A DNA stretch of 64,000 bases from a bacterium (GCA_021734165.1 JAIPJL010000004.1:951-64950), one strand, 5' to 3'. Positions 25,313-55,996 are shown, counted from the first letter of the stretch. The notes: generated by a model not told the origin, from the sequence alone. Program-made: numbers and translations.

Positions 25313-27309
25313 GTAATAAAACCACCAACAATACAACCTACTTACAAAACCTCATCGAGGGCATTAAACCTTACCGTAAAAAGTTAGCTCTTGGTTTCAT
25401 TGCTTCAGCGTTAATGAATGCTTTCGCAGTCATGAGTCCGATGTTGCTCAGATCAGGCGTTAATGCGTTGCAGGAAGGCGCTCCTGTCGGCTGGCTGTAC
25501 ACATTTTCTGGGTTGATTGTCCTGATTGCTGTCATCGGCGGTGTGTTCCGTTATCAGATGCGTATGATCATCATCGGAACATCGCGTTGGGCGGAGAGCG
25601 ATCTGCGCGAAAAGTACTTCGGACATCTGCTTGAGCTTGCTTCGTCATTCTTTGATCGCAATCTGACCGGTGATCTGATGGCGCGCGCTACTGACGATAT
25701 TGAGCGTATCCGTATGGTTTACGGACCGGTGTTGATGATGGTCATGGCTACCTCGCTGACGTTGATCTTTTCCGCAATCATGATGTTTATACTCGACGTC
25801 AAATTAGCAATACTGGTCATGTTTATGGCGCCATTAGTTGGCGCTGTTGTACTACTCGTTGCAAGCAAATTACATCGGGTAAACCTGTGTCAGCAGGAGG
25901 CTTATGGAAAACTCGAGTCAAATGTCCAAGAAAATCTCACCGGTATTCGCGTCGTAAAATCGTTTGTTCGAGAGGCTTACGAATCAAAGAAATTTACTGA
26001 AATCTGCCAGCTATATTTCAAACGCAGTATAGACGTTATAAAAATACAATCGATCTTCATGCCGGTCATAGGGCTGCTGATCGGGCTTGGAATTGCGCTG
26101 ATACTCTGGGTGGGTGGTAAAGACGTAGCAACCGGAGCTATTACGCTTGGAGATTTCATCGCTTTTACAAGTTACTTATCGCTTATGACTTGGCCCATGA
26201 TTTCCATAGGGTGGCTGACACATCTGTATCAGCGTGGATCGGCTTCCCATAGGAGATTGGAACAGATATTTGAGGTGAAGGAACAATTTGAGAAGGATAC
26301 CCCCCCCTTTGATTCCCCTCCAGAGCAGGGGGGGATGACTTCTGACTTTTATTCCAAGCCCGTAGGGCAGGAGGAGATTAATGGAAAACAAGGACTTGAG
26401 TGTCATGTGAGGACACATGACACCACAAGTCCATCAATAACATTCCGAAACATCCATTTCAGTTACAACGATGATTCACCTGAAGTTCTGAAAGGTATAA
26501 ATCTGGACATTCCTTCGGGCAGTAAACTGGCAATTGTTGGGAAAACGGGCTCAGGTAAAAGTACGCTACTTAGGCTATTATCCAGATTGTACGAGCCGCA
26601 AAGTGGTGAAATATTACTTAATGAGACCCCCCCTTTAATCACCCCCTACTCTGTAAGGGGGGAGGGGCAAGCTAATAATCCCTTACCAAGCGAGGAGGGA
26701 AAACAACGCTCATCATCCCCCCCTGCAGAGCAGGGAGAGATTAAAGGGGGGGGTATTTCATGGAAAAAGATTCCAATCCACCAACTCCGTCGTATGATCG
26801 GTTACGTTGAGCAGACTCCCTTCCTCTTCTCAACCTCAATCAGAGAAAACATAGCCTTCGGCGCAATGGAAGCTACAGACGAAGCGATTGCAACTGCTAC
26901 ACAAATAGCGAGTTTCGACAGAGATATTGCGGACTTACCTGACAAGTATGAAACCATTATCGGTGAACGTGGCGTCACGCTTTCCGGTGGTCAGCAGCAG
27001 CGGTTAACAATAGCAAGAGCCTTACTGACCGATACACAGATATTACTGCTTGACGATGCACTCAGCGCTGTCGATACAGGCACCGAAACCGGAATCATTA
27101 ATAATCTGACCACACAGACCAGTCAAAAAACGGTTCTTATCGTAACCCACAGACTTGCCGCGGCTGAAAGAGCCGACAAAATCGCAGTTCTCGATAATGG
27201 AATTATCGCTGAATATGGCAATCATCAGGAATTAATGGATTTAAACGGCTTATATGCTGCGATGTATCGTCGTCAAAGGTTGTCGGATGAACTCGGAGCA
27301 ATATCATGA
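25309..27309 (+). CDS. Heterodimeric ABC exporter subunit 1 (TMD+NBD) with two in-frame repeat insertions
   Basis: Six-TM domain, GKTGSGKS, LSGGQQQR, degenerate Walker B LLLDD; TTG 25309 follows GAGGA and overlaps upstream TGA. Confidence 0.92.
   Translation: MSNKTTNNTTYLQNLIEGIKPYRKKLALGFIASALMNAFAVMSPMLLRSGVNALQEGAPVGWLYTFSGLIVLIAVIGGVFRYQMRMIIIGTSRWAESDLREKYFGHLLELASSFFDRNLTGDLMARATDDIERIRMVYGPVLMMVMATSLTLIFSAIMMFILDVKLAILVMFMAPLVGAVVLLVASKLHRVNLCQQEAYGKLESNVQENLTGIRVVKSFVREAYESKKFTEICQLYFKRSIDVIKIQSIFMPVIGLLIGLGIALILWVGGKDVATGAITLGDFIAFTSYLSLMTWPMISIGWLTHLYQRGSASHRRLEQIFEVKEQFEKDTPPFDSPPEQGGMTSDFYSKPVGQEEINGKQGLECHVRTHDTTSPSITFRNIHFSYNDDSPEVLKGINLDIPSGSKLAIVGKTGSGKSTLLRLLSRLYEPQSGEILLNETPPLITPYSVRGEGQANNPLPSEEGKQRSSSPPAEQGEIKGGGISWKKIPIHQLRRMIGYVEQTPFLFSTSIRENIAFGAMEATDEAIATATQIASFDRDIADLPDKYETIIGERGVTLSGGQQQRLTIARALLTDTQILLLDDALSAVDTGTETGIINNLTTQTSQKTVLIVTHRLAAAERADKIAVLDNGIIAEYGNHQELMDLNGLYAAMYRRQRLSDELGAIS
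26299..26423. repeat. Composite palindromic elements in frame in the TMD-NBD linker
   Basis: A-C8-TTTGATTCCCCTCCAGAGCA-G7 (26299-26334) and GTGTCATGTG-agga-CACATGACAC (26400-26423). Confidence 0.75.
26626..26754. mobile_element. 129-bp MITE/REPIN-like element inserted in frame in the NBD
   Basis: Terminal inverted repeats ACCCCCCCTTTAATC / GATTAAAGGGGGGGGT; removal restores the 12-residue spacing seen in the partner NBD. Confidence 0.85.
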
Positions 27310-29102
27310 CGCCTCCTCCGGGACACAGGATCGGACCTGACGACAGCATCATGGGACAGGCTTATGACGCCCGTCTGATGAAACGTCTGCTCCGCTACAT
27401 GAAACCTTATAGTATTTATGTATTTGGCGCTGTAATATTACTTCTTGCCGCCACTTTTGCTGAACTCGCCGGGCCGTGGCTGGTTAAGATCGGAATTGAT
27501 GATTATATATCGGTTAAAAATATCACCGGACTCTGGAAAATAGTTCTTGCTTACATCGGTTTTCTGATAGCGATGTTTATCCTGCGCTATCTGCAGTTAT
27601 ATCTCACACAGTGGATCGGACAAAAAGTCATCCTCGATATGCGCATTCAGCTTTTCAACCACCTGCAGCGCATGGATTTGAAGTTCATTGATTCTCGTCC
27701 GGTCGGCTGGATGATGACCCGCGTTACAAATGATATTCAGACCTTAAATGAGATGTTTAGTTCGGGTGTTGTTTCAATTTTCGGAGATTTATTCGCTCTG
27801 ATTGGAATCGTCGTTGTTTTGCTGGTGTTAAATGTAAAACTCGCGCTGGTGACGTTCACTGTAGTCCCATTGATCTTCTGGATGGTTTTCACCTTCCGTA
27901 AAAAGGTACGTGTGACCTTCCGGGAAATAAGGGAGACACTTGCTAAATTGAACGGCTTCATGCAGGAGCATATCGCCGGAGTTCGTACCGTGCAGTTGTT
28001 TGTGATGAAATCCCGGACTATGGAACGGTTTCAGGAGCGCAATATCGCTATGCGTAATGCCTGGATAAAAGCTATCCGCTATTTTGCCTTGTTCTTTCCT
28101 GGTGTTCAGTTTGTATCAGCTCTTGCGACGGCTTTGATACTGTTGGTTGGAGGATTACTAATTATTGATGATGCGCTGACTTGGGGAGCGCTGGTGGCAT
28201 TCCTCCAATATGCCGAACGTTTCTTTCATCCGATCAGGGACTTAAGCGAGCGTTACAACACCATGCAGGCGGCTATGGCAGCGGCGGAGAGAGTGTTCTG
28301 GCTGCTCGATACGGAACCGGAGATCGATGATCCTGCTAATCCCGTGAAAATTGAGAATATTGCCGGAAAAGTGGAGTTCAGGAACGTTGATTTTGAGTAT
28401 AATACTGGCGAATCTGTACTGAAGGATGTATCTTTTAAGATTGAGCCGGGACAGACTGTTGCGGTTGTTGGCGCAACCGGAGCGGGTAAAACCACACTTG
28501 TCAGTCTGCTACAAAGGTTCTGGGATGTCAAGTCCGGCGCCATACTTATTGATGATAAAGATATACATGAATATAAAATTGATGATTTGAGACGTGTTTT
28601 CGGCGTTGTGCAGCAGGATGTTTTTCTTTTCAGCGGTTCGATTGCCGAAAATGTCACGCTTGGTGATGATGAACGCTGTGATGATATACTTAGAAATGCA
28701 TTAATCGAAGCTAATGCCATCGACTTCGTGGAAGCAATGCCTGAGGGAGTCGATGAGCTTGTTGGCGAACGAGGCGCCAGGATTTCAGTCGGTCAAAAGC
28801 AGCTTCTCGCCATAGCAAGGGCAATTGCCGTTGATCCTCCGGTGCTGCTGCTCGATGAAGCCACCGCCGCCATAGACACCGAAACCGAACGCCGCATTCA
28901 GAAAGCGTTGGAACGGTTGATGAAGGATCGCACGACGCTGGTTGTTGCGCATCGCTTGTCAACCATCAGACAGGCTGACAGCATTGTGGTTATGCACAAG
29001 GGTAGAGTCCGCGAGATCGGCACACATGAAGAATTACTGCAAAAGGATGGTATATACGCCAGACTGCATAAGCTGCAATATGCGGAAGTTATTGAGACAT
29101 AA
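27306..29102 (+). CDS. Heterodimeric ABC exporter subunit 2 (TMD+NBD)
   Basis: GATGAGKT, degenerate signature ISVGQKQL, consensus LLLDEAT, AHRL; ATGA overlap. Confidence 0.93.
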   Translation: MTPPPGHRIGPDDSIMGQAYDARLMKRLLRYMKPYSIYVFGAVILLLAATFAELAGPWLVKIGIDDYISVKNITGLWKIVLAYIGFLIAMFILRYLQLYLTQWIGQKVILDMRIQLFNHLQRMDLKFIDSRPVGWMMTRVTNDIQTLNEMFSSGVVSIFGDLFALIGIVVVLLVLNVKLALVTFTVVPLIFWMVFTFRKKVRVTFREIRETLAKLNGFMQEHIAGVRTVQLFVMKSRTMERFQERNIAMRNAWIKAIRYFALFFPGVQFVSALATALILLVGGLLIIDDALTWGALVAFLQYAERFFHPIRDLSERYNTMQAAMAAAERVFWLLDTEPEIDDPANPVKIENIAGKVEFRNVDFEYNTGESVLKDVSFKIEPGQTVAVVGATGAGKTTLVSLLQRFWDVKSGAILIDDKDIHEYKIDDLRRVFGVVQQDVFLFSGSIAENVTLGDDERCDDILRNALIEANAIDFVEAMPEGVDELVGERGARISVGQKQLLAIARAIAVDPPVLLLDEATAAIDTETERRIQKALERLMKDRTTLVVAHRLSTIRQADSIVVMHKGRVREIGTHEELLQKDGIYARLHKLQYAEVIET

Positions 29103-29154
29103 AAGGCGCTGCCGGGAGTCTTAGTAGCAATTAAAACATTCTTGAGATTAGCAC

Positions 29155-29179
29155 GTCATTCCCGAGAATGTCGGAATCC
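29155..29179. repeat. Degenerate GTCATTCCCG...GGAATCC palindrome
   Basis: Resembles GTCATTCCCGCGTAGGCGGGAATC at 54658-54681. Confidence 0.55.
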
Positions 29180-29357
29180 ATAGCTATTTATATATTAATT
29201 ACTTAGTACAGGTTACAAAAAATTTAGATTAATACATAAAGTTTGTTTAATTTTTACAATTAATTTGCAAATTGCTGTTGTAATGTGACGCAAGTCATTT
29301 GTTCGTCAAAAATTATTTCTTAAGCTTGATTTATAAACTACAAAGCAGGGGGCAATA

Positions 29358-32046
29358 ATGTTTCGTTTTGGTTTTGTTTTCACAGTCCTTTTTTTAAACT
29401 TCACAATCAGCGTAAACCTAAGCGCTCACATCCTTAACGTCCCTGATGATTTCGAGACCATTCAGGGAGCTATCAATGAATTCGAAGACGGTGACACCGT
29501 CCTTGTTCAGCCAGGGGAGTATGTCGAGAATATCGTCTTTGGAGGTAATGCGATAACCGTTGCTAGTCTGATCCTTACTACAGGTGACAGGGCGTATATA
29601 GACTCAACCATCATCGACGGAGATGGAAGAGACTGTGTGGTTAGCTTCGAGGATGAAGAAGACAGCACTTCAGTATTGCGAGGATTCACTTTAAAAAATG
29701 GTCGTCAGAGTTATGGTGGTGGAATTGATTGTCAGACGGATACAAGTCCTACATTAATTGACCTGATTGTTGAAGATAATATCGCTGAAGCTTACGGCGG
29801 AGGGATTTATATAACTCATTCATCATCACCCTATATTTCCATGGGTTATTGTTAGGAATAACCGTTCGACAGCAGTGGGAGGCGGAATTGGAATATATGA
29901 CGATTCTCACCCGGTATTAAACGAAGTTATTATCCAGAATAATGAGACTAATACAGAAGGTGGTGGAGGTATCTGGTGTCGAGAGGCGAGTCTTACAATG
30001 TCAAATTGCATAATCTCTAAAAACAATAGTAGTAGGCGAGGTGGTGGTCTATACTTTTACCAAAGTAGTGGGAATAGTATAATTAATTCTACAATTTCAG
30101 ACAATCAGGCTGAAGAAGGAGATGGATTCTATATATTTGGTACCGAAGGTGAAACAACTATTTTAAATATAATTAATTCAATCGTATGGGGTAATTCAAA
30201 CGAAGAAATAGTAATATATTCGGATTGGTACGAGCTTAATCCTCTCCTTACAATTTCTTATTCAGATATATTGGGAGGATTGGATGGTATTGAAATAAAT
30301 GATATTGAAGCCGTTGAGTGGAATGACGGTAGCATCGACGAAGATCCATTATTTGTAGATTCTGAAAGCGGTGATTATCATCTTTCTGCAATTTCACCAT
30401 GCATTGATGCAGGCGATCCTGATTCGCCTCAAGATCCCGACGGATCACGCGCGGATATGGGAGCGTTACCGATTTACCAGGGTGGCTACGTTGAAGGATT
30501 TGTACTGAATTTAGCAAATGATGATCCCATTGAGGGAGTGATAGTCCGAAATAATGTAAGACAGGAAGTCGAAACCGACGCAGACGGATTCTTTCGATTT
30601 AGATCACGAACGCCGGATAATTTCGATTTGACGGCTTCAATAGCGGGTTACAATAACAGTGTCCTGCGTGATCAGCACGTTGACAGTGATAGTACTCTAA
30701 GGGTAATCTTCTATCTTACTCATCCTGAAATTCAACTGTCTGAAAGGTCTATTGGCGCAACACTGGATCAGGGAGATTCCACCGAGTTTGAACTAAGCAT
30801 CACCAACCAGGGTAACGGTCCATTGGAATGGCAGGCTAAGAAACGACTACTCGGTGAATTTGATCCTTGGGAACTCAGACAATCACACTATGTGCGCGAG
30901 GTCGTTCTTGATAATTATCTTATGGGAGTAATATTTGTTGATGAGTATTTTTATGCTTCAGGCGCTAATATCTTTGCAAATGTTGACAACGAAAACATGA
31001 TCTATGTGCTCGACCGCGATGGTCAAGAAATCGACCGTTTCCCTCAGTTTGGTGAATCCAACAGAGGTATGGAAGACCTTACCTGGGATGGGGAGTTAAT
31101 CTGGGGATGTGATGATAATATGGTTATCGGTTTCAATACAGATGGTGATTCTGTTACTTCGTTTGAAGGTCCTGAAGAATATAATTTGTGTGCCATTGCC
31201 TGGGAGCCCGACCGTGAAGTGTTGTGGATGGCGCGCAGGACTGGTCGAGGTATCTTTGCTTGTAACATTGAGGGAAATTGTTTGGACTCGCTACCACGCT
31301 GTGGTTTTCGGATATATGGTCTGGCTTACCGGCAGGATGATCCAGACGGATACAATCTGTACATCTTTAACAGTACCCAGATGGTGTACAAGATGAACAC
31401 CGAAACCGGCGATACGATGTTTGTTGCTCTCCTCGAGCATGAAGAAGGTGGACGACCAAGAGGCGCCTGTATTACCAACGAGTACGATCCAAGAAGTTGG
31501 GTATTCGTATGCATAACGGACAATGGTCCGGATGATCGCATCGATATCTGGCAGGTTGATGGAAACACGAGTTGGATGGTTTTAGAACCTATGCTGGGTG
31601 AAATAGAGGCAGAAGCATCGCAGGATTTAACTCTTTCTATTTTCACCGAGAGACTGACCGTTCCAGATTGGGAAGCAGAGCTTGTATTCAGTCACAATGC
31701 GGCGGGTGGTGAGACTATCCTACCGGTTACACTTACAATCAGACCGGATGCGGTTGATCACGATGATAGAATTACAATACCCGATGAATATGGAATTGCA
31801 AGTATTTATCCGAATCCTTTTAATTCAAGTGTAACAGTCAGTTACAACCTGCCTGTCAGCTCAGACGTCAGCTTGCAGTTATTCGATATATTGGGCAGGG
31901 AAGTCGCATCTTTATTCAACGAATGGCAGACCGTTGGTTCACATACGGTAGTAATTGACAATACGGAACTTTCGGCTGGATTGTATTTGATCAGGTTGAA
32001 GAGTGGAAGTGATGTGGTTGTAAGGAAAGTTGTGCTGGTGAAATAA
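29358..32046 (+). pseudogene. Secreted beta-helix/propeller-like T9SS CTD protein split by a +1 frameshift near 29842 (pseudogene or assembly error)
   Basis: ORFs 29358-29855 and 29875-32046 are collinear with the 16724-19405 paralog; deleting one base in TCCATGGGTT gives continuous SRVIVRNNRSTAVGGGIG. Confidence 0.8.
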
Positions 32047-32073
32047 TATTTACTATTAGCACACAAAACCATC

Positions 32074-32095
32074 CCCGGCTTGAAGACAAGTCGGG
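32074..32095. terminator. Hairpin between convergent genes
   Basis: CCCGGCTTG-aaga-CAAGTCGGG. Confidence 0.55.
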
Positions 32096-32127
32096 TTACG
32101 ATACTACGACACACCGACACCAAGAAA

Positions 32128-33243
32128 CTACGGAACTACCCAGCAGCCACTGACCGGAGCTTCTTTTACTCCGGTCACATCAGGCAGTGTAATAGGCGCT
32201 CTATCCTGACAAAGCGCTCCCAGTATCGCCATCGCTATCGCTTCGCGGAACTGTGAAGGAATTCCGTAGTCGTCTGATAAACCTACCGGTATTTCAAACC
32301 TCTTTCTGATTTCCCGCAACAGCGTTTTATTCATCACACCTCCTCCAGAGAGAATAATCCTGTCTGCTGTTTTGCAGTAAGTAGCTATGGTTTCAGCGAT
32401 TGCAGCACAGGCTGTTCTGGCAATATCAGCGCCGATGTGACGACCGCTGTGACGCTGAATCCACTTCTCCATTTCATCACCCGTACCAAGCGAGCGTTTT
32501 GCATCGGATTGCGCTGTTAGTAATTCAAGCAACGCTTCGTAAGATTCACTTTGAACCGTGCCGTTTTTCGCCTGAAAACCACTGCTATCAAAGCGCTTAT
32601 GAAAAAGGTTTACGGAAATCCTGTCGAGTAATTGATTGCAGACGCAGATGTCTTTACCACTGATTCCGTATTCCCCTCTTTGATTTTCCCCTTGCGAAGT
32701 AGGACAAGTAAGGATTGTTACATTGCAAAATCCACCTAAATTCACAATACATCTAATCTCCTTATCATTGCGGAACATAACATAATCTGCAAGCGGTGTA
32801 ATCGGCGCTCCTTCACCGCCACACGCAAGATCGGCAGCGCGCAGATCGTGAACGACCGGAACATCTAAACCATAAGCAATCGGTGAAGGATTGATCAATT
32901 GCCAGCTTAAAGGAGGTTTATGATATACTGTCTGACCGTGAACTGATACCAGATCGATATGGTGATCTCCAATCAGTTTTCGTAGAATATCAAGATGCAA
33001 CAGTCCGAAGTTACGGGAAGCCATTGCAATCTGTTCAGCCGTAAATGCTCTCTGTCCCGCTATTCTACGCAGCGGTTCACAAAGCTTACCAAGTGGATTG
33101 CTTAGACAATTTATTACGTTGACTTTCATGTCAACACCGTGTCCTCTGATCTCAATTAGCGCAGCATCAATTCCATCAATACTGGTGCCGGTCATACATC
33201 CGGCAACGTATCTGATCTTTTCGTTACTGCTGTTCAAGCTCAT
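32128..33243 (-). CDS. anmK: Anhydro-N-acetylmuramic acid kinase
   Basis: GCMTGTSIDGIDAAL, HGQTVYH, GGEGAPI, NLGG, SGGG; GAGGA RBS before ATG 33243. Confidence 0.88.
   Translation of the reverse strand: MSLNSSNEKIRYVAGCMTGTSIDGIDAALIEIRGHGVDMKVNVINCLSNPLGKLCEPLRRIAGQRAFTAEQIAMASRNFGLLHLDILRKLIGDHHIDLVSVHGQTVYHKPPLSWQLINPSPIAYGLDVPVVHDLRAADLACGGEGAPITPLADYVMFRNDKEIRCIVNLGGFCNVTILTCPTSQGENQRGEYGISGKDICVCNQLLDRISVNLFHKRFDSSGFQAKNGTVQSESYEALLELLTAQSDAKRSLGTGDEMEKWIQRHSGRHIGADIARTACAAIAETIATYCKTADRIILSGGGVMNKTLLREIRKRFEIPVGLSDDYGIPSQFREAIAMAILGALCQDRAPITLPDVTGVKEAPVSGCWVVP
32672..32703. repeat. C/G-tract element in frame in anmK
   Basis: Coding strand CCTACTTCGCAAGGGGAAAATCAAAGAGGGGA (PTSQGENQRG) matches AAGGGGAAATTAAAGGGGGA at about 54771-54791. 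Confidence 0.6.
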
Positions 33244-34957
33244 AAAGTATATCCTCGTAATACTTACAACTATCTTCAAGTCCGCCTTGTCTGGAATGGA
33301 TCAACCACAATTTTCGGTGTTCTTCGATAATCTGTTTGAGTTGCTTTATTAATATTAATTGCTTCTTCCTGCCAAGTTTGTCATCTGATAGTCTGTATAT
33401 AGAGCGATCAATAGCAAACATCGCAACATCAAGCGTATGCGAAAGCTCGTCGGTTAGTTGTCGATATAGTTTTTTCGGCAGGTATTCACGCCCTTCGGAT
33501 AACATTTCCTTAACTCTAATCCAGTCATCAGGATTATCAATGTATCCCTTTTTATAAAGCGGTGTTTGCAGGTCGTTAAATATACAGCTTGCATTCTTAA
33601 TTCCGGTTTTCTTCCTAAGTCCAAGATCGACATTTCCAAGTACATCAAGCCAGTTTGCAATTTCTAACGATACGTCGTTGAATGCAAATAACGACGACGC
33701 CTGGCTGTCAAATCTATCCACAGAATCCGCATTCCAGGCAGCGTTAGCCGCTTCGGCAAGCGCATGCAAAGCAATCGGCGATTGTTGTCTATGACCCAGA
33801 TCGCCCCAGTCGGTAATCAGGAATCCGGAAGCTCCGTATTTCACGCCGACTTTTACGGCGTTTGCCAGATTTGTTTTACGTTCGAAAGTCCGTCCTGTTA
33901 TACTGCGCCATGAGCTTGTTCCGGGACAAACCCAGTATTCAAAATCGGCGTCTTTCAATTTAGAACACCAACTATCAAATGGTGAATCCGGCTCATATCC
34001 CCAGATCAACACTATGGCGTCCTTAGGCAGCATCGCTAAAGCTTCAGGCGATTTCAGCGCCATATCAGCCCAGAACATGCTGCGAAACTTATGTTTTGAG
34101 GCTATGTTAATAACCTGCCTGACAAAATCAGCATAGACTTTAGCATAGCCCTGTTTTTCAACCGCTTCACGACTTCGTCCCTGACCTACGTCGAAGGTCT
34201 CATCACAGCCGATGTTGACAAGACCACTGCTGAAGTTCGGCAGAAGCTGACCCAGCAGATCAGCAATCAATGCTATCGAACGCTCATCAGTCGGGCAGAG
34301 GCTGAAACCGCCTGAACGTTTGGTATTGAGGAATTTCCATTCTCCGGTTGTTTCGGCAAGGTGCTGGTATTGAGAGTGTTTCAGCCAGCGTTCCATGTGT
34401 CCGAAGCAGTTCTGGTTGGCGGCAAGTGTTATTCCCTGCTCCAGGCAGCGTTCGTCAAGTTCTTTAATTTCATCCGCTGTAAGAGGCGAAGTATCCTTCC
34501 AGACGACTTCGTGTCCTTTATAAGCAAAAGTGTGCTCGGTGTAAAGCTGCAAATGGTTAATCTTCCATGAACCCAGCAGGTCAACAAACCGGAGTAGTTC
34601 ATCCTGTTTTGGAATCCTGTCACGGGAGATATCAAGCATCACACCGCGCACCGGGAATGACGGCTCGTCTTCGATGAGCATACAGGGGAGCGCAGTTCCG
34701 AACTGCCGTTTAAGCTGCTTAAGAGTCCGGAGTCCGTGACAAACGCCGCTTTCAGACACAGCTTCGATTATGACAGGATGTGGACTTTGCTTATCGGGAT
34801 GTTTGACGATTAGCTTATAGCTCTCAGAACGGATACTACCTCCCTGCTCTGCAGGGGAGGAATTAAAGGGGGGAGCGTTCCCGATATTAACCACTCCTCC
34901 GGTAAAATCAATGCGTCTCGGTTCAGGGAGCAGTATGGGTTTTAAATTATCAATCAT
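33224..34957 (-). CDS. Glycoside hydrolase family 20 beta-N-acetylhexosaminidase
   Basis: RGVMLDISR, HLQLYTEH, FGHM, NIGCDE, ITDWGD; overlaps the anmK start. Confidence 0.85.
   Translation of the reverse strand: MIDNLKPILLPEPRRIDFTGGVVNIGNAPPFNSSPAEQGGSIRSESYKLIVKHPDKQSPHPVIIEAVSESGVCHGLRTLKQLKRQFGTALPCMLIEDEPSFPVRGVMLDISRDRIPKQDELLRFVDLLGSWKINHLQLYTEHTFAYKGHEVVWKDTSPLTADEIKELDERCLEQGITLAANQNCFGHMERWLKHSQYQHLAETTGEWKFLNTKRSGGFSLCPTDERSIALIADLLGQLLPNFSSGLVNIGCDETFDVGQGRSREAVEKQGYAKVYADFVRQVINIASKHKFRSMFWADMALKSPEALAMLPKDAIVLIWGYEPDSPFDSWCSKLKDADFEYWVCPGTSSWRSITGRTFERKTNLANAVKVGVKYGASGFLITDWGDLGHRQQSPIALHALAEAANAAWNADSVDRFDSQASSLFAFNDVSLEIANWLDVLGNVDLGLRKKTGIKNASCIFNDLQTPLYKKGYIDNPDDWIRVKEMLSEGREYLPKKLYRQLTDELSHTLDVAMFAIDRSIYRLSDDKLGRKKQLILIKQLKQIIEEHRKLWLIHSRQGGLEDSCKYYEDILYELEQQ
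34839..34873. repeat. C/G-tract element in frame near the GH20 N-terminus
   Basis: Coding strand CCCCCCTTTAATTCCTCCCCTGCAGAGCAGGGAGG (PPFNSSPAEQGG), same family as 26299-26334 (PPFDSPPEQGG). Confidence 0.8.
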
Positions 34958-35496: not shown

Positions 35497-35518
35497 TGCC
35501 ATGTGTCCCCACATGGCA
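35497..35518. repeat. Palindrome TGCCATGTG-tccc-CACATGGCA
   Basis: Intergenic relative, with compensatory changes, of the in-frame copy at 26400-26423. Confidence 0.7.
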
Positions 35519-35556: not shown

Positions 35557-36735
35557 GTGAGATCAATTTTTAATTTCTTCTCTGTTACAGTTTTACTCTG
35601 CATCTTAGATTTACCAGTATCTGTATTGGCAGTTAATATTTCCGGCTACTATGAAAACACCTTGCTGCCGGAATACTCAGATCGAACAGATGAAGGAATA
35701 CTTGATGCTTCCAAGTTAAGACTCGATTTTAAAACCGGAGGCGCGGAAGATGAATTGGAGTTTAAGGGCAACGTCAACTTCATATCCTATCATACAGACG
35801 TCAACCTGGATGTGACTCCTTATCTTCCTCAGATTGTCGCAGATACACTCACTAATCGCGGTATTCCGGTAATTATGACGCTCGATAAAAACCGCATCTT
35901 CCTCGACAATGCCTATCTAACCTGGCGTTCAGGTGGTTTCAGAGTACGCGTCGGTATTCAGCAATTAAGCTGGGGTCCGGGATACAGCTTCAATCCGACC
36001 GACCTCTTCCATCAGAAAAACCTGCTCGATCCGACTTATGAGAAAGAGGGTGTAACTGCGCTCAGACTGGATTACACCTGGGGCATCGGAGGCAGAATTA
36101 CAGGAATCTACGCGCCAAGCGGCAAACTCGAAGGATCCGAATATGCGCTCAGAGCGGCGACTCACATCAGCCAAATAGGCTACGACATTGCTATGACAAT
36201 TCATCAAGTTAATGACTCAACATCTATCGATCCGGGGACTTATCAGACTTGCTATCAAAAGAGACGCGCTCTTGGCTTGGATTTCAGCGGTGAACTGCTT
36301 GGACTGGGGGTATGGTTTGAGGGTAATTACAATAGTGTGGAATACGAGGATGATTTCGTGCGCACCTGCGCCGGATTTGACTACACGCTTGTGAATGGCT
36401 TGTACCTGATGCTCGAAGGTTTGTACAATGGTCGCACTGAATATTCCGCTCCCTATCCTGCTTACGACTGGCTGGAATATATTTACTATGGTGAACCTGT
36501 CTCGATGTATCGATTTATGGCAGGCGCTAAGAAAGACCTGAGTAACTTTGTGGACGGAAGCCTATACTGCTTTGGAGGCACGGACGGTTCTTACATGCTG
36601 AGTCCCCGAATCGATGCCAGCATAGCCCAGAACGCCGATCTGACGCTGTTTGGTATGGCGTCATTCGGCGCTAAAGACGGTCAGTTTCCGCCGGGATATT
36701 ACTCGCTGACAGCGAGGGTGACGGTGTATTTTTAA
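35557..36735 (+). CDS. Predicted outer-membrane beta-barrel protein
   Basis: Signal peptide, alternating beta-strand pattern, FLDNAY...RVGIQQLSWG...FNPTD, terminal Phe (TVYF); GTG start. Confidence 0.7.
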   Translation: MRSIFNFFSVTVLLCILDLPVSVLAVNISGYYENTLLPEYSDRTDEGILDASKLRLDFKTGGAEDELEFKGNVNFISYHTDVNLDVTPYLPQIVADTLTNRGIPVIMTLDKNRIFLDNAYLTWRSGGFRVRVGIQQLSWGPGYSFNPTDLFHQKNLLDPTYEKEGVTALRLDYTWGIGGRITGIYAPSGKLEGSEYALRAATHISQIGYDIAMTIHQVNDSTSIDPGTYQTCYQKRRALGLDFSGELLGLGVWFEGNYNSVEYEDDFVRTCAGFDYTLVNGLYLMLEGLYNGRTEYSAPYPAYDWLEYIYYGEPVSMYRFMAGAKKDLSNFVDGSLYCFGGTDGSYMLSPRIDASIAQNADLTLFGMASFGAKDGQFPPGYYSLTARVTVYF

Positions 36736-36745: not shown

Positions 36746-36886
36746 TGGGGAGCACCAACACTTGTCCGCCTCCGGCGGATTCCTGTCGGCGGATTGAGCA
36801 TAAAACCCTGAAAAGGTTAATGTAAATAGCCACCTGCGTTAGTCGGTGGGATTGACTTCAGCGTGTTTATGACAACCTGAAGGTTG
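36746..36886. repeat. Cluster of REP-like hairpins
   Basis: TGGGGAGCACCAACAC with TCCGCC-tcc-GGCGGA (36765-36779); AACCCTGAAAAGGT...AGCCACC...GGTGGG; CAACCTGAAGGTTG. Confidence 0.6.
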
Positions 36887-49811: not shown

Positions 49812-49910
49812 CGTTAATTCTCCAATCAATTTTTGTGTATTGACGCTCGGTTGTTTATCGCCAGAGCTGCAATAAAATGTTCTTTGAAACCATAATTCGC
49901 TATGAACGTA

Positions 49911-49926
49911 TGCAAAGGACATACCA
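49911..49926 (-). promoter_or_regulatory. Sigma-54 (-24/-12) promoter of the Hmc-like operon
   Basis: Minus strand TGGTATGTCCTTTGCA: GG-N10-GC, exact spacing. Confidence 0.8.
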
Positions 49927-50102
49927 TTTTAACGATGTGTTAATGGTTCGCTGGATATTACCTAAATTTTCACAAACAAGCTTTCATTTTAACTTCATGT
50001 TATAAAAGCACGTACAGAAAATTTATAGATAAATGGATTTCTACCACTTACTGAATTATATAATTTTTCCAATATGGGAGTTGAACTAAGCATCGATTTA
50101 TA

Positions 50103-50139
50103 TGTCGCAAGTGTTGCAACATATTGTTGCAGTGAAACA
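50103..50139. promoter_or_regulatory. Candidate upstream activator sites
   Basis: Clustered TGT(T/C)GCA/TGCAACA half-sites including the perfect palindrome TGCAACA-TAT-TGTTGCA (50115-50131), about 180-210 bp from the promoter. Confidence 0.6.
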
Positions 50140-50407
50140 AATATTAAGACATCCATTAAGACGTTAAGTGGATATTCTGTAGCATTAATTCAAAGATTTC
50201 AAACAATTCATTTAGTATTCACTTGAGAATCAGATATATCCATTTCATTATTTATAATCTATTCCCACGATTATTTACCAAACTATTAATAAATCACTTC
50301 TGATTATTAAAAATACACACATTTTTGCAGACCGGATGGTGATTATACGGCACGTTAGTTGCTTGAGGTCGTATGTAGAACACGGAAAACTCTCTGGAAA
50401 AGATAAT

Positions 50408-51394: not shown

Positions 51395-51444
51395 TTACGG
51401 TTTAACAAAAAAGAATAACAGTTTAATTTTTAAGGAGAAAGAAA

Positions 51445-51981
51445 ATGGCAATACCAAATTTAAACGCTGTCGGTTTCTGCGCTCATTATTCCCAACAAGG
51501 TGACTGGGCGTTCGATTATGCTTTAGGTTTATCTCGTGAGCATAGAATTCAACTGGATGTATTTCACTTCCTGGAAAATCCTTTTGATCCTAATGACAAT
51601 TCAGCGAAAAACCTTTCAAAAGCAGATCGACAGAGACTTGCTATCGAACGAGAACGTGAATTAAGGATGTACTATGACAGCCGCGCAGGTGACTATCTTG
51701 AAGTAGGATTCAGACTCTGCGAGGACAATGAATGGACAGAATTGCATCGTTGTTTGCTAATAAGAGAGTTCCAAATTCTCGTTCTTGGCTACATAGAAAT
51801 CGATGCGTACTTCGCAGGCAAACCGATAGAGGAATTTGCGAATAGTTTTGTTAGTCCGGTAATTTTGGTTGGTCCTGAAAACCCGGATAAATATTTGCTT
51901 AATAGTCCGGCAGCTCTCATTGCTGATAAACTATGCTTACCGGAGGGAAGCTGGCAGAAAATCGAACTTGTCTCTGCATGA
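51445..51981 (+). CDS. Universal-stress-protein-like protein (divergent)
   Basis: beta-alpha start (FCAHYSQQGDWAFDYAL...LDVFH), ILVLG, SPVILV; AGGAG RBS. Confidence 0.55.
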   Translation: MAIPNLNAVGFCAHYSQQGDWAFDYALGLSREHRIQLDVFHFLENPFDPNDNSAKNLSKADRQRLAIERERELRMYYDSRAGDYLEVGFRLCEDNEWTELHRCLLIREFQILVLGYIEIDAYFAGKPIEEFANSFVSPVILVGPENPDKYLLNSPAALIADKLCLPEGSWQKIELVSA

Positions 51982-52170
51982 TAGTAATGCAGGAATGCAA
52001 TACACAAAGGATTGACATTGACATAGAGAATATTTAAAATCCATTTAATCGTTAAAATGAGATATATATCAAGTGATAAGCATTGTTATATATGTCGATT
52101 AATCCTTATATTTAGTGGTATAATTGTTGCACAAGTCATTTTTGGTTATTCAAAGAAACAAAGGAATAAT

Positions 52171-53472
52171 ATGAACGATCTGAGTGAATTAATCTTCGAT
52201 AGTATCAGTGATGGTGTATTTACAGTAAATGATAAATGCATCATCACTTCTTTCAACAAAGCAGCCGAAGATATCACTGGATTCAAAGCTAAAGAAGCGC
52301 TTGGAAAACATTGTTTCGATGTTTTCCGTACAGAAGTCTGTCATAAAAGATGTGCACTTAAAGATACTCTTAAGAATCATGATCCTGTTGATAACGCTAG
52401 GGTGACTATTATAACCAGCGAGGGATGTGAGTTGCCAATTAGCGTGACCACAACTTTATTAAGGGATAAAGCGGAACGTATAATTGGCGCTGTTGAGTTT
52501 TTTAGGGACATTTCTGAGATCGAGCATCTTCATAAGCGTCTGGATGAACGGCGCATTTTAAGTGATATAGTCAGTGTAAACACTGAGATGCAGAAGCTGG
52601 TTCAACTGTTGCCCGATGTAGCTGAAGCTGAGTGCAATGTATTAATAGAGGGTCCCAGTGGTTCCGGAAAGGAATTAGTAGCGCAGGTTATTCATAATCT
52701 CAGTCCTCGCAAGTATGGACCTTACATAAAAATAAACTGTGCTGCCCTGCCGGCGACACTTCTCGAATCGGAGCTATTTGGTTATTCGAAGGGAGCATTT
52801 ACAGACGCTAAACGCGATAAACCTGGGCAGTTTTGCCTCGCCAACGGTGGAACCTTGCTGCTTGATGAAATCAGTGAAATGGATATATCGCTCCAGGTTA
52901 AGTTGCTAAGGGTACTGAATAATGGTGAGTATCAACCGCTTGGATCAACTAATACTATGCGGACTGACGCCCGGATTATTGCCGCAACAAATGCAAATCT
53001 TCAGAAGTGTATTGAAGAAGGACGCTTCAGAGAAGATCTTTATTATAGAATCAATGTTGTTAGTCTTCAGATTCCACCCCTTAACGAGCGGCCTGAAGAT
53101 ATCCCGCTTCTCGTTAATTACTTCATGCAAAAATTCCGTAAAAAAACAAGAAAATCTATCAATAAAGTTGCTCCGGAAACTCTTGCAGTATTAAGAAAAT
53201 TCCTTTTTCCAGGTAATGTCAGGGAATTAGAGAATGCTATCGAACATGCATTTGTCATGTGTCATGGCAGTGAGATCAGATCGGAGCACCTTCCGTTGAA
53301 TATCGTAAATAATGGTTATGCCACTAATGGTGTAACATCAGTTAAAACACATGAGAAGCAGGTTATTACTGAAGCCTTACAACGCAACCATGGCAATCGC
53401 AATCGCACTGCTGAAGAACTCGGTTTGCACAGATCAACTCTTTGGAGAAAAATCAGGATGTATAGATTATAG
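52171..53472 (+). CDS. PAS-domain sigma-54 enhancer-binding protein (OrpR-like)
   Basis: PAS with three Cys (GKHC...EVCHKRC), GPSGSGKE, ESELFGY.KGAFTDA, LDEI, FPGNVREL, Fis-type HTH; AGGA RBS before ATG 52171. Confidence 0.9.
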   Translation: MNDLSELIFDSISDGVFTVNDKCIITSFNKAAEDITGFKAKEALGKHCFDVFRTEVCHKRCALKDTLKNHDPVDNARVTIITSEGCELPISVTTTLLRDKAERIIGAVEFFRDISEIEHLHKRLDERRILSDIVSVNTEMQKLVQLLPDVAEAECNVLIEGPSGSGKELVAQVIHNLSPRKYGPYIKINCAALPATLLESELFGYSKGAFTDAKRDKPGQFCLANGGTLLLDEISEMDISLQVKLLRVLNNGEYQPLGSTNTMRTDARIIAATNANLQKCIEEGRFREDLYYRINVVSLQIPPLNERPEDIPLLVNYFMQKFRKKTRKSINKVAPETLAVLRKFLFPGNVRELENAIEHAFVMCHGSEIRSEHLPLNIVNNGYATNGVTSVKTHEKQVITEALQRNHGNRNRTAEELGLHRSTLWRKIRMYRL

Positions 53473-53590
53473 AAACTTCGAGGTGAAAAAGATCTCGTCC
53501 TCGAAGCTGCCAAAGCATTTTAACCTGCCATTTCTGGCATAAAACAGCTAAATTACTGCAATAGTGATTTAGCTGTTATTATTTGTAACT

Positions 53591-53610
53591 TATATATATA
53601 TATATATATA
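53591..53610. repeat. (TA)10 microsatellite abutting a -35 box
   Basis: Ten perfect TA units directly before TTGACT. Confidence 0.95.
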
Positions 53611-53639
53611 TTGACTTTTGCCGAGTGGTTTATTATATT
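53611..53639 (+). promoter_or_regulatory. Sigma-70 promoter of the lipoprotein gene
   Basis: TTGACT-17 bp-TATATT. Confidence 0.7.
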
Positions 53640-53710
53640 GTTAATACTATATCATTGAATTTTCCCAATTTTAATACATACAAATATCGTTTCACAGCTT
53701 GGAGGTTATC

Positions 53711-55996
53711 ATGGTCAAGATAAGGATTTTTGCATCATTTACAGTCATATTAATTCTAACCCTTCTGTTTGTCAACTGCACAGAAGACAGTCCAACAACA
53801 CCATCCATCGACTTTGTAGCGCCTTACGTCGAATGGGTGAACCTTTCAAACAGCGCGGAACTCTCCGGAACGGTTGAGTTCTCCTTCAGCGTCTATGATG
53901 AAAACGGCATTGATAGCGTTAAGGTCTATATCAATGGTCTGTTAGATCAGGGGTGGGGCAGACATTCCTGTCTGACATCCTGCTCCGACACCACAATCGC
54001 CTTCGCATGGAACACCCTTGACTACGAGGACGGCGTTTACATCCTCGAAGCGAGAGCCTGGGACACATCAGGCAACCTCGGTGTAAGTCCATTTTTAATG
54101 GTAAACGTCAGAAACAACGAAGAGCCTCCTCCCGATGATCACTTACCACCAATGATAATATGGGTGTCACCTGAAGCAAGCTCTGAGGTTTCAGGTGATG
54201 TAACACTGAGATTCAATGCAATGGACAACATTGGAATAGACAGCCTCAAACTATATGTGAATGGAGCCTGTCCTGAAGGATTTACACTTCAAGGACAGCA
54301 GGAAATAGAATACAGTATAGTCTGGAATACGGAAGATTTCGGCGACGGTGTTTACAGTTTAGAAGCGAGAGCCTGGGACACATCCGGCAACATGGGCACA
54401 AGTCCATCACTGATGGTGAATGTTAAAAACGATACAGATCCACCACCGGAAGACAGACTTGCTCCATATGTCCATTGGATAGCGCCTGAAGGAGGCAGTA
54501 CTCTCAAGGATACAGTCAGCTTACAGGTTGGTTTATATGATGAAAACGGCGTCGACAGCCTTAAGGTCTATATTAATGGCACACTCATAATGGGGAGCGC
54601 CGGCGCCTCCCCCCCTGCTGCTCAGTCTGTCCGAAAATGCACGAAATCTCTAACAATGTCATTCCCGCGTAGGCGGGAATCTAATAATAACAATGAGTTA
54701 ACAGATTCCTGCCTTCGCAGGAATGACACTCTTTTTAGTTCCCGTACTGGCTTGTTAATAGGAGGGAATAAAGGGGAAATTAAAGGGGGATTTAATCTAA
54801 CCACATCAACCGACACCACCATCACCATCGCATGGAACACATTTGACTATGAAGACGGAGTTTATATCCTCGAAGCGAGAGCCTGGGATACATCCGGCAA
54901 CCTTGGCACGAGTCCATCTTTAATGGTGAATGTCAAGAATGACGAAGAGCCTCCCCCCGAAGACCGCACGCCTCCGGTGGTTAGTTGGGTGTCGCCAGAA
55001 CCTGGAACTGAAGTATCAGGAGATGTAGAATTGTGTTTTCAGGTGATGGATGATATAGGGCTTGATTCGGTCCAGGTTTACTTGAATAGTCAAAAATGGC
55101 AAAACTTTAAATATATAGAAAATTATTTTGATACAAAAGTGATCTGGATCACATCTGACTACTCAGATAATAATTATATTGTAGAAGTGAGAGCTTGGGA
55201 TACATCCGGAAACATCGGTTCAAGTGAAGTAATTTGTTTCACTGTAAGGAATAATGTGCCGCGTGTTATCTGGGTGCCGGATGACTATGAAACAATTCAG
55301 GGCGCTATCAATGCCAGTGAAGATGGGGATACGGTGAGGGTCAGAGCGGGTATCTACTATGGAATGGTCTATTTCTGGGATAAAGATATATGGTTGGAAA
55401 GCGAAATGGGACCTGAATTAACTATAATTGATGCTGATAATGATAATTTCGGTGTACGTATTGACAACGGGCAGGATACAACAACAACAATAAGAGGTTT
55501 TATGATAATGAATGCTGAATTTAGAGGTATTGATTTAGTTTATAATTCAAGTATTCGAATGTTTAATAATATTGTTATTACACCAGAAGGTAAAAATGTG
55601 TGGTCAGATTTTAACAGATCAATTTATTTAAATAATATTTTTACAAACTCAGGAAGTGGTAATTTCGAGATATGGGTTTCTTATGGTTATATGTATAATA
55701 ATTTAGTTATCCACAGTGGTAGATATGCTATGTTTAATCGCAGTTACTTTGATAATCCCCTTTTTATTGATTATAACCTGTTTTGGGATTATCAAACGCT
55801 GCTAACAAATGAACCTTCGTTTAGGTTCGAGGAGAATAATATCTTTGATCTTGATCCACAATTCAGAGATGATAGTTTTATTTTAAGAAATAATTCCCCA
55901 TGTATTGATACGGGGCATCCGGATTTATTCGATTTAGATGGATCACGCTCTGATATGGGCGTTTATGGTGGGCAATATGCATACCCACCACCATAA
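53711..55996 (+). CDS. Lipoprotein with four Ig-like repeats and a C-terminal beta-helix module; carries in-frame repeat insertions
   Basis: GGAGG RBS; lipobox LFVNC; four W(N/I)T...(LEA/VEV)RAWDTSGN units; VPDDYETIQGAI...SPCIDTG module. Confidence 0.85.
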   Translation: MVKIRIFASFTVILILTLLFVNCTEDSPTTPSIDFVAPYVEWVNLSNSAELSGTVEFSFSVYDENGIDSVKVYINGLLDQGWGRHSCLTSCSDTTIAFAWNTLDYEDGVYILEARAWDTSGNLGVSPFLMVNVRNNEEPPPDDHLPPMIIWVSPEASSEVSGDVTLRFNAMDNIGIDSLKLYVNGACPEGFTLQGQQEIEYSIVWNTEDFGDGVYSLEARAWDTSGNMGTSPSLMVNVKNDTDPPPEDRLAPYVHWIAPEGGSTLKDTVSLQVGLYDENGVDSLKVYINGTLIMGSAGASPPAAQSVRKCTKSLTMSFPRRRESNNNNELTDSCLRRNDTLFSSRTGLLIGGNKGEIKGGFNLTTSTDTTITIAWNTFDYEDGVYILEARAWDTSGNLGTSPSLMVNVKNDEEPPPEDRTPPVVSWVSPEPGTEVSGDVELCFQVMDDIGLDSVQVYLNSQKWQNFKYIENYFDTKVIWITSDYSDNNYIVEVRAWDTSGNIGSSEVICFTVRNNVPRVIWVPDDYETIQGAINASEDGDTVRVRAGIYYGMVYFWDKDIWLESEMGPELTIIDADNDNFGVRIDNGQDTTTTIRGFMIMNAEFRGIDLVYNSSIRMFNNIVITPEGKNVWSDFNRSIYLNNIFTNSGSGNFEIWVSYGYMYNNLVIHSGRYAMFNRSYFDNPLFIDYNLFWDYQTLLTNEPSFRFEENNIFDLDPQFRDDSFILRNNSPCIDTGHPDLFDLDGSRSDMGVYGGQYAYPPP
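53953..53976. repeat. REP unit in frame in Ig repeat 1
   Basis: GTGGGGCAGACA-ttcc-TGTCTGAC, 18/24 identical to intergenic 16614-16637 with compensatory stem changes. Confidence 0.75.
54591..54793. mobile_element. Nested repeat complex in frame in Ig repeat 3, including a 129-bp MITE-like unit (54624-54752)
   Basis: ATTCCC-N8-GGGAAT (54661-54680) with inverted partner 54703-54727; imperfect ends AGTCTGTCCGAAAA / TTCCCGTACTGGCT (9/14); flanked by two halves of a C/G-tract element. Confidence 0.8.

Follow-up and report, generated by a model that had tools for sequence, protein, structure and literature searches.

Hairpin repeats of several families, some in frame within genes, and their candidate enzymes in the genome of an uncultured bacterium

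The genome of an uncultured, sediment-type bacterium harbours at least five families of hairpin repeats, the copies of which are mainly intergenic, and about 25 or more of those copies lie deep within high-scoring ORFs, as was anticipated by an earlier note on this DNA that proposed a multi-family system resembling the Rickettsia palindromic elements (RPEs). The account that we regard as likely is that these are mobile hairpins of several families, attended by RAYT- and DUF559-type enzymes, and that the coding copies are in-frame survivors translated as disordered loops. REP/REPIN-type hairpins would be served by RAYTs, and the apparent autonomous form of the C/G-tract family, F1, would be a gene for a DUF559 (Vsr-like) nuclease with inverted F1 units on both sides. 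The repeats would land mostly between genes, and survival within a gene would require at once that the frame is kept, that there is no stop in that frame and that the site is a permissive linker or surface loop; the survivors would then be read as protein loops that are disordered and either Pro/Gly-rich or charged. Each element has no more than one or two open frames, and in this way unrelated proteins would come to share a peptide. In-frame palindromic repeats are already documented (the RPEs; intragenic REPs, Di Nocera 2013), and the core finding is thus a new instance.

The window, which is the 64-kb stretch of DNA analysed here, belongs to a MAG (169 contigs, 86% complete, 3.4-Mb assembly, ~91% coding by a home-made ORF model) of an apparently free-living host. 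This genome is referred to as G000, and G006, G007, G011 and G013 are relatives. The gene calls come from a home-made ORF scorer, which sets start codons too far upstream (two or more of the "coding" hits proved to be 5' leaders), so that the figures of the repeat census are approximate. The features of the window are collected in Table 1.

Table 1. Repeat-related features of the window, with position (from its first letter), strand and reading or context
Feature	Position	Strand	Reading or context
REP pair: AGTAG-tagged hairpin GACAAACATTCTTGTTTGTC and nested hairpin GACAAGCAG..CCTGCCCCTGCGTAGGCAGGGG..GCTTGTC	16613..16704	+	intergenic
ABC exporter site 1, whole	26300-26432	+	C/G-tract unit plus REP hairpin
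Site 1, first part: F1 unit CCCCCCCCTTTGATTCCCCTCCAGAGCAGGGGGGG, then degenerate partner half (GGGCAGGAGGAGATTAATGG)	26300..26384	+	read as TPPFDSPPEQGG...
Site 1, second part: F5 REP hairpin TGTCATGTG-AGGA-CACATGACA, CCAC tail	26392..26432	+	within a longer stem
ABC exporter site 2: REPIN-like doublet, two F1 units in inverted orientation with a 52-nt spacer between them	26626..26754	+	nucleotide-binding domain
AnmK loop, excluded	32665..32706	-	no repeat insertion
GH20 enzyme: single F1 unit CCCCCCTTTAATTCC plus hairpin TCCCCTGCAGAGCAGGGA	34839..34873	-	read as APPFNSSPAEQGG; variable N-terminal linker
F5-like hairpin TGCCATGTG-TCCC-CACATGGCA	35497..35518	+	intergenic; compensated stem change relative to the ABC exporter copy
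REP-type hairpins	36760..36791	+	intergenic; directly downstream of a porin-like gene ending at 36735
Lipoprotein site 1: F4 REP hairpin GGTGGGGCAGACATTCCTGTCTGAC	53952..53976	+	read as GWGRHSCLT; loop of Ig repeat 1
Lipoprotein site 2: composite element, ~198 nt	54592-54790	+
GC palindrome (GGGGAGCGCCGGCGCCTCCCC) overlapping left half of F1 hairpin	54592..54622	+	loop of Ig repeat 3
F2-long, ~121 nt, nested in the F1 hairpin	54623..54743	+	read as ..SFPRRRESNNNNELTDSCLRRNDTLFSS..
F2-long two-hairpin core, 72 nt	54657-54728	+
Right half of the split F1 unit (GGAGGGAATAAAGGGGAAATTAAAGGGGGA)	54761..54790	+	read as GGNKGEIKGG

Two known types of element are present. The first comprises hairpins of the REP/REPIN type with a short 5' tag; F3, F4, F5 and F6 are of this kind and F2 probably is. 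F5 has the form TGTCA-N4-(A/G)GGA-N4'-TGACA-CCACT and was found as 45 hairpins with at least eight variants of the inner stem, every one perfectly complementary; it is a short tagged palindrome in many dispersed copies, as REPs are, its tag being GTGG rather than GTAG. The second is the BoxC or "intrastrand triplex motif" type, represented by F1, in which a C-tract and a short A/T linker precede a C-tract...G-tract hairpin. The form C6-(apical stem and loop)-G6-AATTAAA-G6 yields 29 regex matches in the genome, with covarying apical stems; there are ~31 F1 units, about a third of them inside ORFs and roughly 8-10 deep within high-scoring ones. As a control for specificity, the reversed pattern gave 0-1 matches per genome and this, together with the genome-wide copy search, excludes chance matches as the origin of the families. 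That search, which the earlier note had suggested, found other copies of the units, mostly intergenic despite the high coding density (203 of the 279 segments of Cluster 0, for example), and in either orientation relative to neighbouring genes. The sequence of F1 is conserved across families within the phylum. F1 doublets and the longer element F2-long are palindromic from end to end; no parent IS was found. F2-long has a single open frame, which all three of its coding copies use. Further coding hosts of the repeats include a PP-loop ATPase, a xanthine-dehydrogenase-type enzyme, a DNA methylase, an AddB-like protein and giant surface proteins.

Six in-frame sites in the window had been claimed, and five of them stand (two in the ABC exporter, one in the GH20 enzyme and two in the Ig-repeat lipoprotein). 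The sixth, in AnmK, was rejected: its loop does not exceed that of 13 orthologues in length, there is no excess fold (z = +0.45), and what it has in common with a repeat family is a single 13-mer, of which by rough estimate a few are expected by chance in 64 kb. No frame is broken, just as had been stated; an ORF check found all host ORFs of the window intact. The description of the inserts as extra peptides applies to both ABC exporter sites and to lipoprotein site 2; the GH20 unit and lipoprotein site 1 add little or no length in comparison with homologues. The peptides said to recur in unrelated hosts do so, PPF(D/N)S(S)P..EQGG being common to the ABC exporter and GH20, and GEIKGG to the exporter and the lipoprotein.

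At site 1 of the ABC exporter the C/G-tract unit (C8-TTTGAT-hairpin) is joined by an F5 hairpin that, with its CCAC tail, matches three intergenic copies at 97% identity over 34 nt. The variable linker that joins the membrane and ATPase domains contains the site and exceeds that of the nearest orthologues by 25-30 aa, and the DNA (26299-26433) folds with z = -4.67 relative to shuffled sequence. Site 2 is exactly 129 nt (43 codons) long, splits the Pfam ABC_tran match into two stretches and folds as DNA at -73 kcal/mol (z = -6.8 relative to shuffled sequence). The insert is missing from 8 of 12 orthologues, is present in G011 and G007 and is represented in G006 by a 5-aa remnant; G000, G011 and G007, which form one clade, have it at the identical codon position, so that this insert has been retained across genera. 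G011 keeps perfect C8/G8 hairpins; the apical stems of G000 are unlike those of G011, yet complementary in each. The G007 copy is a decayed homologue (FPELAPP versus CPPLTPP) in a host gene that has not been lost. In the AlphaFold model both inserts are predicted to be disordered loops, with pLDDT below 50 at residues 336-380 and 448-488; they are the only long low-confidence stretches, the others being the 14-residue N-terminus and a 7-residue loop. Intact frames and retention across genera suggest that the inserts are translated. The earlier proposal that the repeats supply new protein loops is consistent with this model insofar as the loops appear to be tolerated and disordered; adaptive novelty goes beyond the evidence.

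Site 1 of the lipoprotein has exact 23-nt matches on contigs C32 and C23. Ig repeat 3, which contains site 2, exceeds repeats 1, 2 and 4 in length by 65 aa. Those three repeats and a paralogue on contig C121 lack the nested element, and the paralogue has the left-half sequence in the uninterrupted form ASPPATAGGDKGG; the region 54590-54793 folds with z = -4.58 relative to shuffled sequence. The F2-long peptide recurs in the PP-loop ATPase (contig C26) and in a 3131-aa protein (contig C123), and F2-long is missing from all 11 orthologues of the ATPase. Comparison with orthologues, internal domain repeats and the paralogue thus provides empty sites for ABC exporter site 2 and for the 198-nt lipoprotein insert. 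In the GH20 enzyme, a 15-mer of the F1 unit has 12 genome copies; in the G011 orthologue an F1 unit is present too, but its apical stem differs. Among the intergenic partners with compensated stems that had been listed, the REP pair, with 13-mers at 15-35 genome copies, and the F5-like hairpin are as described; the copy at 53953, taken to be one more, lies inside the lipoprotein gene.

The window had been noted to lack a mobilizing enzyme, and RAYT genes were suggested as something to look for elsewhere. There are two, on other contigs, each flanked by inverted REPs. The flanks of the one at C26:12529-13017, GTGTCAGGCG..CGCCTGACACCACT, are of the F5 type, the family of ABC exporter site 1. [quoted passage not shown] The adjacency of enzymes and repeats is observed, and the pairing of enzyme with family, like transposition itself, is inferred. 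Since no target-site duplication is visible at ABC exporter site 2 or in its orthologue comparison, mobility is read from the distribution of the copies alone.

The RPEs (Ogata et al. 2000), as described in PMC10969869 and PMC3733652, are several palindromic families found in frame in unrelated genes, with a family-specific peptide, permissive surface positions and a large intragenic fraction. All of these traits, in-frame insertion in unrelated ORFs and a conserved peptide among them, are found here as well, and the sizes of F2-long (~121 nt, ~40 aa) and of the 129-nt F1 doublet are similar. The analogy is functional only; judged by their consensus sequences, the families seem not to belong to the RPEs. 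The RPE host is obligately intracellular with a reduced genome, unlike the present one, which appears to be free-living; here, moreover, units are as short as 23-35 nt, one site is nested and candidate enzymes can be identified. In REP-RAYT "REPtrons" the repeats have a high copy number and lie chiefly between genes, singly or as inverted doublets, and inverted copies flank the RAYT gene (PMC3733652, PMC3116915), and the GTAG/CGTC-tagged REPs of Di Nocera et al. 2013 (PMC3733652) lie in some cases within ORFs, where they encode 8-80 aa. The present hairpins share all of these traits: tags, mostly intergenic location, singles and inverted doublets, inverted copies flanking RAYT genes and some intragenic copies. 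They differ in that the RAYT-flanking family is tagged (A)GTGG, that the phylum was not covered by that survey and that surface Ig-repeat proteins and an ABC ATPase domain are among the hosts. Coxiella QMITEs and other MITEs are likewise non-autonomous palindromic elements that extend or interrupt ORFs in frame (PMC5896051, PMC10969869), but the defining features of a MITE, terminal inverted repeats that stem from an IS and duplication of the target site, were both not found here.

Simple insertion fails to explain why GH20, lipoprotein site 1 and paralogues at C156 and C42 have 21-27-nt repeat matches with no net gain of length. These cases would fit a templated patching, in which other copies serve as the template, through gene conversion or through repair, for hairpins that replace the resident sequence, and old copies are continually refreshed, leaving coding copies that do not lengthen the protein and stay perfect over long times. 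The perfect hairpins of site 2 in G011, set against the decayed copy in its sister G007, and the differing but complementary apical stems of G000 and G011 at that same site point the same way. Nevertheless, we consider patching unlikely: ABC exporter site 2, F2-long in its three hosts and the nested lipoprotein insert have clean empty sites and added length, an insertion followed by a deletion could leave no net gain, given that the length of loops and linkers is variable in any case, and fresh re-insertion into an old copy would have the same appearance. It is more improbable still that the hairpins are functional elements selected by the host, for example structures of the mRNA or DNA at domain boundaries where translation or replication would be made to pause. 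The placement of inserts at such boundaries or in loops, the preservation of hairpins by compensatory changes and the phylum-wide conservation of F1 would suit that explanation, but the units are mostly intergenic and in either orientation to their neighbours, most orthologues work without the inserts, the G007 copy has decayed while its gene was kept, and the units flank transposase and nuclease genes as mobile elements do. A view of the host genes as pseudogenes, or as artefacts of an incomplete, fragmented MAG, whether broken, chimeric or untranslated, can hardly be entertained when the ORFs are full length with Pfam domains on either side of the inserts, a homologous insert is found in intact genes of independent MAGs from other genera, and confidence in the model of the ABC exporter is high away from the inserts.

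For F1, mobile hairpins with in-frame survivors again being the preferred reading, the candidate enzyme is of another kind. Inverted F1 units stand on both sides of a gene for a DUF559 (Vsr-like) protein at C81:701-1132, and the suggestion to look for DUF559 genes flanked by the same repeats was in this way rewarded for the C/G-tract family. Thirteen other genomes of the phylum contribute 14 further DUF559 loci with the same bracketing. Over 79 genomes F1 and DUF559 co-occur with an odds ratio of 4.6 (p = 0.0025); F1 is present in eight genomes in which no DUF559 gene was detected, and the exact F1 pattern is absent from 18 genomes that do have DUF559. G007, with a single F1 copy, has no DUF559 gene, and its sister G011 has one. 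The nuclease may keep copies "fresh", as the contrast between their site 2 copies would suggest.

The intrastrand triplex motif consists of a pyrimidine block, a loop, a purine block, a 3-7-nt linker and a second purine block (PMC4666352). F1 follows this order of blocks and, like BoxC/TMECO, has variable loops and tens of copies; with the E. coli TMECO consensus CCCTCNCCC..GGGNGAGGG it has the layout alone in common and no sequence match, its blocks being C6/G6 homopolymers where those of TMECO are CCCTCNCCC. TMECO (BoxC or PIT elements) has been reported as always intergenic and without a link to mobile elements (Holder et al. 2015, PMC4666352), unlike F1, which occurs inside ORFs and brackets a DUF559 gene. 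In E. coli K-12, ycjD adjoins the original BoxC. We found no paper linking BoxC-type repeats with DUF559 and none reporting BoxC within coding sequence. We propose, tentatively and as a possibility that may well prove wrong, that F1 is the BoxC of this phylum and that BoxC-type repeats are non-autonomous copies of a DUF559 (Vsr-like, PD-(D/E)XK) element bracketed by inverted triplex-motif repeats. The 5' repeat of such an element would stop right ahead of the start codon, and its 3' repeat would encode the C-terminus of the nuclease. If this is true, DUF559-BoxC would be a second partnership of enzyme and hairpin besides RAYT-REP, spanning the distance from this phylum to E. coli.

Short-hairpin repeats of many families are scattered through the MAG under study (3.4 Mb in 169 contigs, completeness 86%), as resolved by genome-wide 13-mer counts followed by clustering of the high-copy segments. 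At least five families are present, several genes carry two insertions and one coding site is nested. The C/G-tract unit F1 has the layout C6-TTT(A/G/T)AT-C6, a variable apical stem and loop, and G6; F4, F5 and F6 are REP-type hairpin families, and F2 is probably of the same type. The F1 pattern is matched up to 19 times per genome, compared with 0-1 times for the reversed pattern that served as the control in each genome. Rfam, at gathering threshold, recognizes no family anywhere in the window, so F1 does not belong to any described RNA family; at six intergenic F1 loci the Rfam matches were all weak and below threshold.

Host genes, repeat units and candidate mobilizing genes (positions without a contig prefix are those of the window, C54:951-64950)
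Feature	Position	Remarks
ABC exporter pair	25285-27309 and 27306-29102	intact ORFs
AnmK	32128-33279, minus strand	intact ORF
GH20 enzyme	33224-34957, minus strand	intact ORF
Lipoprotein	53699-55996	intact ORF; 765 aa, four Big_7 Ig domains
F1, ABC site 1	26300-26334	
F1, ABC site 2	26626-26754	inverted doublet
F1, GH20	34839-34873	
F1, lipoprotein	54606-54622 and 54761-54790	split into halves
F2-long, lipoprotein	54623-54743	~121 nt; 72-nt core with two hairpins
F5, ABC exporter	26401-26426	TGTCA-N4-AGGA-N4'-TGACA-CCAC
F5, intergenic	35497-35518	
F4	53952-53976	GGTGGGGCAGACATTCCTGTCTGAC; exact 23-nt match on two other contigs
RAYT	C127:4682-5164	both flanks of the CCGTCAGGTC family
RAYT	C26:12529-13017	bracketed by inverted F5-type REPs (GTGTCAGGCG...CGCCTGACACCACT)
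DUF559	C81:701-1132	single copy in the MAG

An earlier note had claimed six coding insertions in four of these proteins. Both sites in the ABC exporter are hairpin repeats (fold against shuffled sequence, z = -4.67 at site 1 and -6.80 at site 2). Site 2 is cleanly empty in 8 of 12 orthologues, which run uninterrupted from ...GxIxIDG into KxWxx.... At the identical codon position the relative G011 carries a doublet that is shorter and forms perfect C8/G8 hairpins, and G007 has a decayed homologue of the insert (FPELAPP... versus CPPLTPP...); G006 retains a 5-aa remnant at this site. A tree computed on the protein minus its inserts joins the MAG, G006, G012 and the pair G011 and G007 in one well-supported clade. 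Retention crosses genera, and the simplest reading is a single old insertion that has stayed in frame in three genera and been lost or trimmed elsewhere. No target-site duplications were seen at site 2. Site 1 falls in the linker that joins the membrane domain to the ATPase domain. This linker varies in all orthologues and here exceeds that of the nearest relatives by 25-30 aa; in another relative, G010, it holds a separate C/G-tract insert. (A contig search with the exporter as query found no homologues other than distant ones from Firmicutes; these are of no use for defining empty sites and served instead as the alignment for structure prediction.) An AlphaFold2 model built on an alignment of 25 distant homologues has the usual exporter fold, with a mean pLDDT of 75 and low-confidence stretches only at residues 1-14, 221-227, 336-380 and 448-488. 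The latter two stretches correspond to the inserts; each is predicted to be coil, which on this model places them in disordered loops. C- and G-tracts read as proline and glycine in most frames, and this may help to explain how F1 is tolerated.

Both lipoprotein sites are likewise genuine. Site 2 (composite fold, z = -4.58) adds 65 aa to Ig repeat 3, relative to repeats 1, 2 and 4, in the loop past the YING motif. The equivalent loop of a paralogue on contig C121 holds an uninterrupted F1 unit (ASPPATAGGDKGG) and therefore serves as a clean empty site for the nested F2-long. Outside the window, F2-long encodes the same peptide (SFPRRRESNNNN.L.DSCLRRNDT) in a PP-loop ATPase, where it is absent from 11 of 11 orthologues, and in a 3131-aa protein. 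F2-long has a single open frame among its six, the one used by all three coding copies. The units at lipoprotein site 1 and in GH20 are real, and the GH20 orthologue in G011 has an F1 unit with a different yet complementary apical stem, but the claim of extra peptides is an overstatement at these two sites, where little or no length is added relative to homologues. The peptides that the earlier note saw in unrelated proteins are indeed common to them, because an identical repeat unit is read in an identical frame; the compensated stem change that distinguishes the intergenic F5 copy from the one in the exporter was also borne out. Insert-junction peptides predicted from the host frames are ...LLNETPPLITPYSVR..., ...GEIKGGGISWK... 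and ...SFPRRRESNNNN.... The proposed AnmK insertion was rejected: the loop is as long or longer in 13 orthologues, the conserved strand NVTIL is encoded by part of the supposed element, the sequence folds no better than shuffled sequence (z = +0.45), and what it has in common with a repeat family is a single 13-mer, of which a rough estimate expects a few chance matches in 64 kb.

Gene calls for the incomplete MAG, made with a home-made ORF scorer, are approximate and give a coding fraction of ~91%. The repeat segments are mostly intergenic (203 of 279 in the largest cluster). Some 25 copies or more are found deep in high-scoring ORFs, among them ~8-10 of the ~31 F1 units; these census counts are approximate, since two apparent coding matches proved to be 5' leaders of lipoprotein genes. 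Further hosts include a xanthine-dehydrogenase-type enzyme, a DNA methylase, an AddB-like protein and giant surface proteins. In the N6/N4 DNA methylase (C113:4062-6185), a PHHSS(A/V) tandem peptide repeat and a repeat-derived ESWNPDN segment both lie just past the DPPF motif. Two paralogous secreted proteins (C156:16283-19498 and C42:37019-40378) match the CGGGGAGCGCCGACATTCCTGTCGGCG family over 21-27 nt, in register with their other domain repeats, and thus gain no length; simple insertion leaves these matches unexplained. A simple promoter or terminator role for F1 was dropped on account of its inconsistent orientation to neighbouring genes.

Repeats also appear in other arrangements. Directly upstream of a small lipoprotein-like gene, C75:56400-57000 holds a 222-nt unit repeated ~2.5 times in tandem, with a single F5-type hairpin and a single F1 unit in each copy; the tandem unit has no match in Rfam. 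A CRISPR array at a contig end (C58:14741-15238; 36-nt repeat GGTGTTACTGACCCTAATTTGGGGGGTACAAACAGG, at least 8 repeats) contains twice the same spacer, a REP-like hairpin (TCTCCCCGCGAAGGCGGGGATC) with exact 18-20 nt matches to chromosomal hairpins on contigs C6 and C132. Within the window, the secreted protein gene at 29875-32046 has inverted similarity to 18241-22910 (72-76% over 270-690 nt); it and the opposite-strand genes at 18-23 kb encode paralogous T9SS-type surface proteins.

The window lacks a mobilizing enzyme, as the earlier note had said. Other contigs encode two RAYTs (REP-associated tyrosine transposases), each of which scores above the NCBIfam equivalog cut-off and carries the HUH and Tyr motifs, and one DUF559 protein, a Vsr-like nuclease. 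All three genes are adjacent to repeats, the DUF559 gene being bracketed by F1 units. The RAYTs of relatives are flanked by different hairpins, that of G013 by AGGGCGGACATTCCTGTCCGCCCT, which is of the F4/F6 type. Among these, in G008, is a G6...C6 hairpin; its polarity is opposite to that of F1, so that it offers no evidence for a RAYT-F1 link. When the genome was searched for genes lying between inverted high-copy repeats, the DUF559 gene and one RAYT were found again, and no enzyme for F2 came to light; the remaining genes so placed are ordinary ones between intergenic REPs. A 407-aa protein of unassigned function (C61:51314-52534) has inverted copies of a GTAGCCCGG...CCGGGCTAC hairpin pair on either side and could be another mobile unit.

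The DUF559 gene product matches PF04480 (108 bits) and PDB 3hrl (E = 5e-16). On the 5' side of the gene a hairpin-linker-G-tract unit reaches to within a few bases of the start codon, and its last residues are encoded by a C-tract-hairpin unit. At this locus and four others in relatives (L180, L183, L186 and L187), F1 encodes the C-terminal 10-25 residues of the nuclease (..DPPSPPPAIAGG.., ..PPACGGELKGG), and the upstream G-tract stops, a few bases from the start, where a ribosome-binding site is expected. F1 is present at one or both flanks in 14 of 18 further DUF559 loci inspected in the phylum, these being from 13 genomes: G006, G001, G009, G002 (two loci), G011, G014 and G013 in the same family, and G019, G054, G071, G065, G078 and G069 elsewhere. 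Wherever both flanks can be seen, their hairpins are reverse complements of each other, and thus act as terminal inverted repeats. Among 79 genomes of the phylum, exact F1 and DUF559 occur together in 20, F1 only in 8, DUF559 only in 18 and neither in 33 (odds ratio 4.6, Fisher p = 0.0025).

Judged by its blocks, the layout of F1 is that of the BoxC/PIT/'triplex motif' repeats. BoxC/triplex repeats have been known since 1992; to our knowledge, neither their function nor their mover is known. In E. coli they were described as strictly intergenic and without a link to mobile elements (PMC4666352), in contrast to F1, which here also lies inside coding sequence. The 3' end of ycjD, a DUF559 gene of E. 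coli K-12, is a C-block/G-block hairpin, and a canonical BoxC lies ~170 nt beyond it, between ycjD and fabI. Among the papers searched that mention DUF559, no title or abstract connects it with BoxC-type repeats.

Textbook in-frame palindromic repeats are mostly those of Rickettsia. The Rickettsia palindromic elements are well documented (PMC10969869), and intragenic GTAG/CGTC REPs are known from several free-living bacteria (PMC3733652). The in-frame hairpin repeats described here are another case of this documented phenomenon, extended from Rickettsia to an apparently free-living lineage. What goes beyond the literature that was found is a BoxC-type family that lies in coding sequence and is consistently paired with DUF559.

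We suggest that RAYTs would move the REP-type families via single-stranded hairpins, and that the DUF559 nuclease would spread or maintain F1, perhaps by nicking and repair-driven copying; selection would then purge genic copies that shift the frame, introduce a stop codon or hit a structured region. There is room for a partial rival, in which copies arise or persist by templated rewriting or refreshing: some coding sites show no net gain of length, and the hairpin pair at ABC site 2 is perfect in G011 and decayed in its sister G007, which has no DUF559 and a single F1 copy. In-frame palindromic repeats are selfish DNA able to add protein loops. The consistent DUF559 partner of BoxC/triplex repeats is the more useful lead and, since that partner is present also in E. 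coli K-12, the question is testable in a standard strain.
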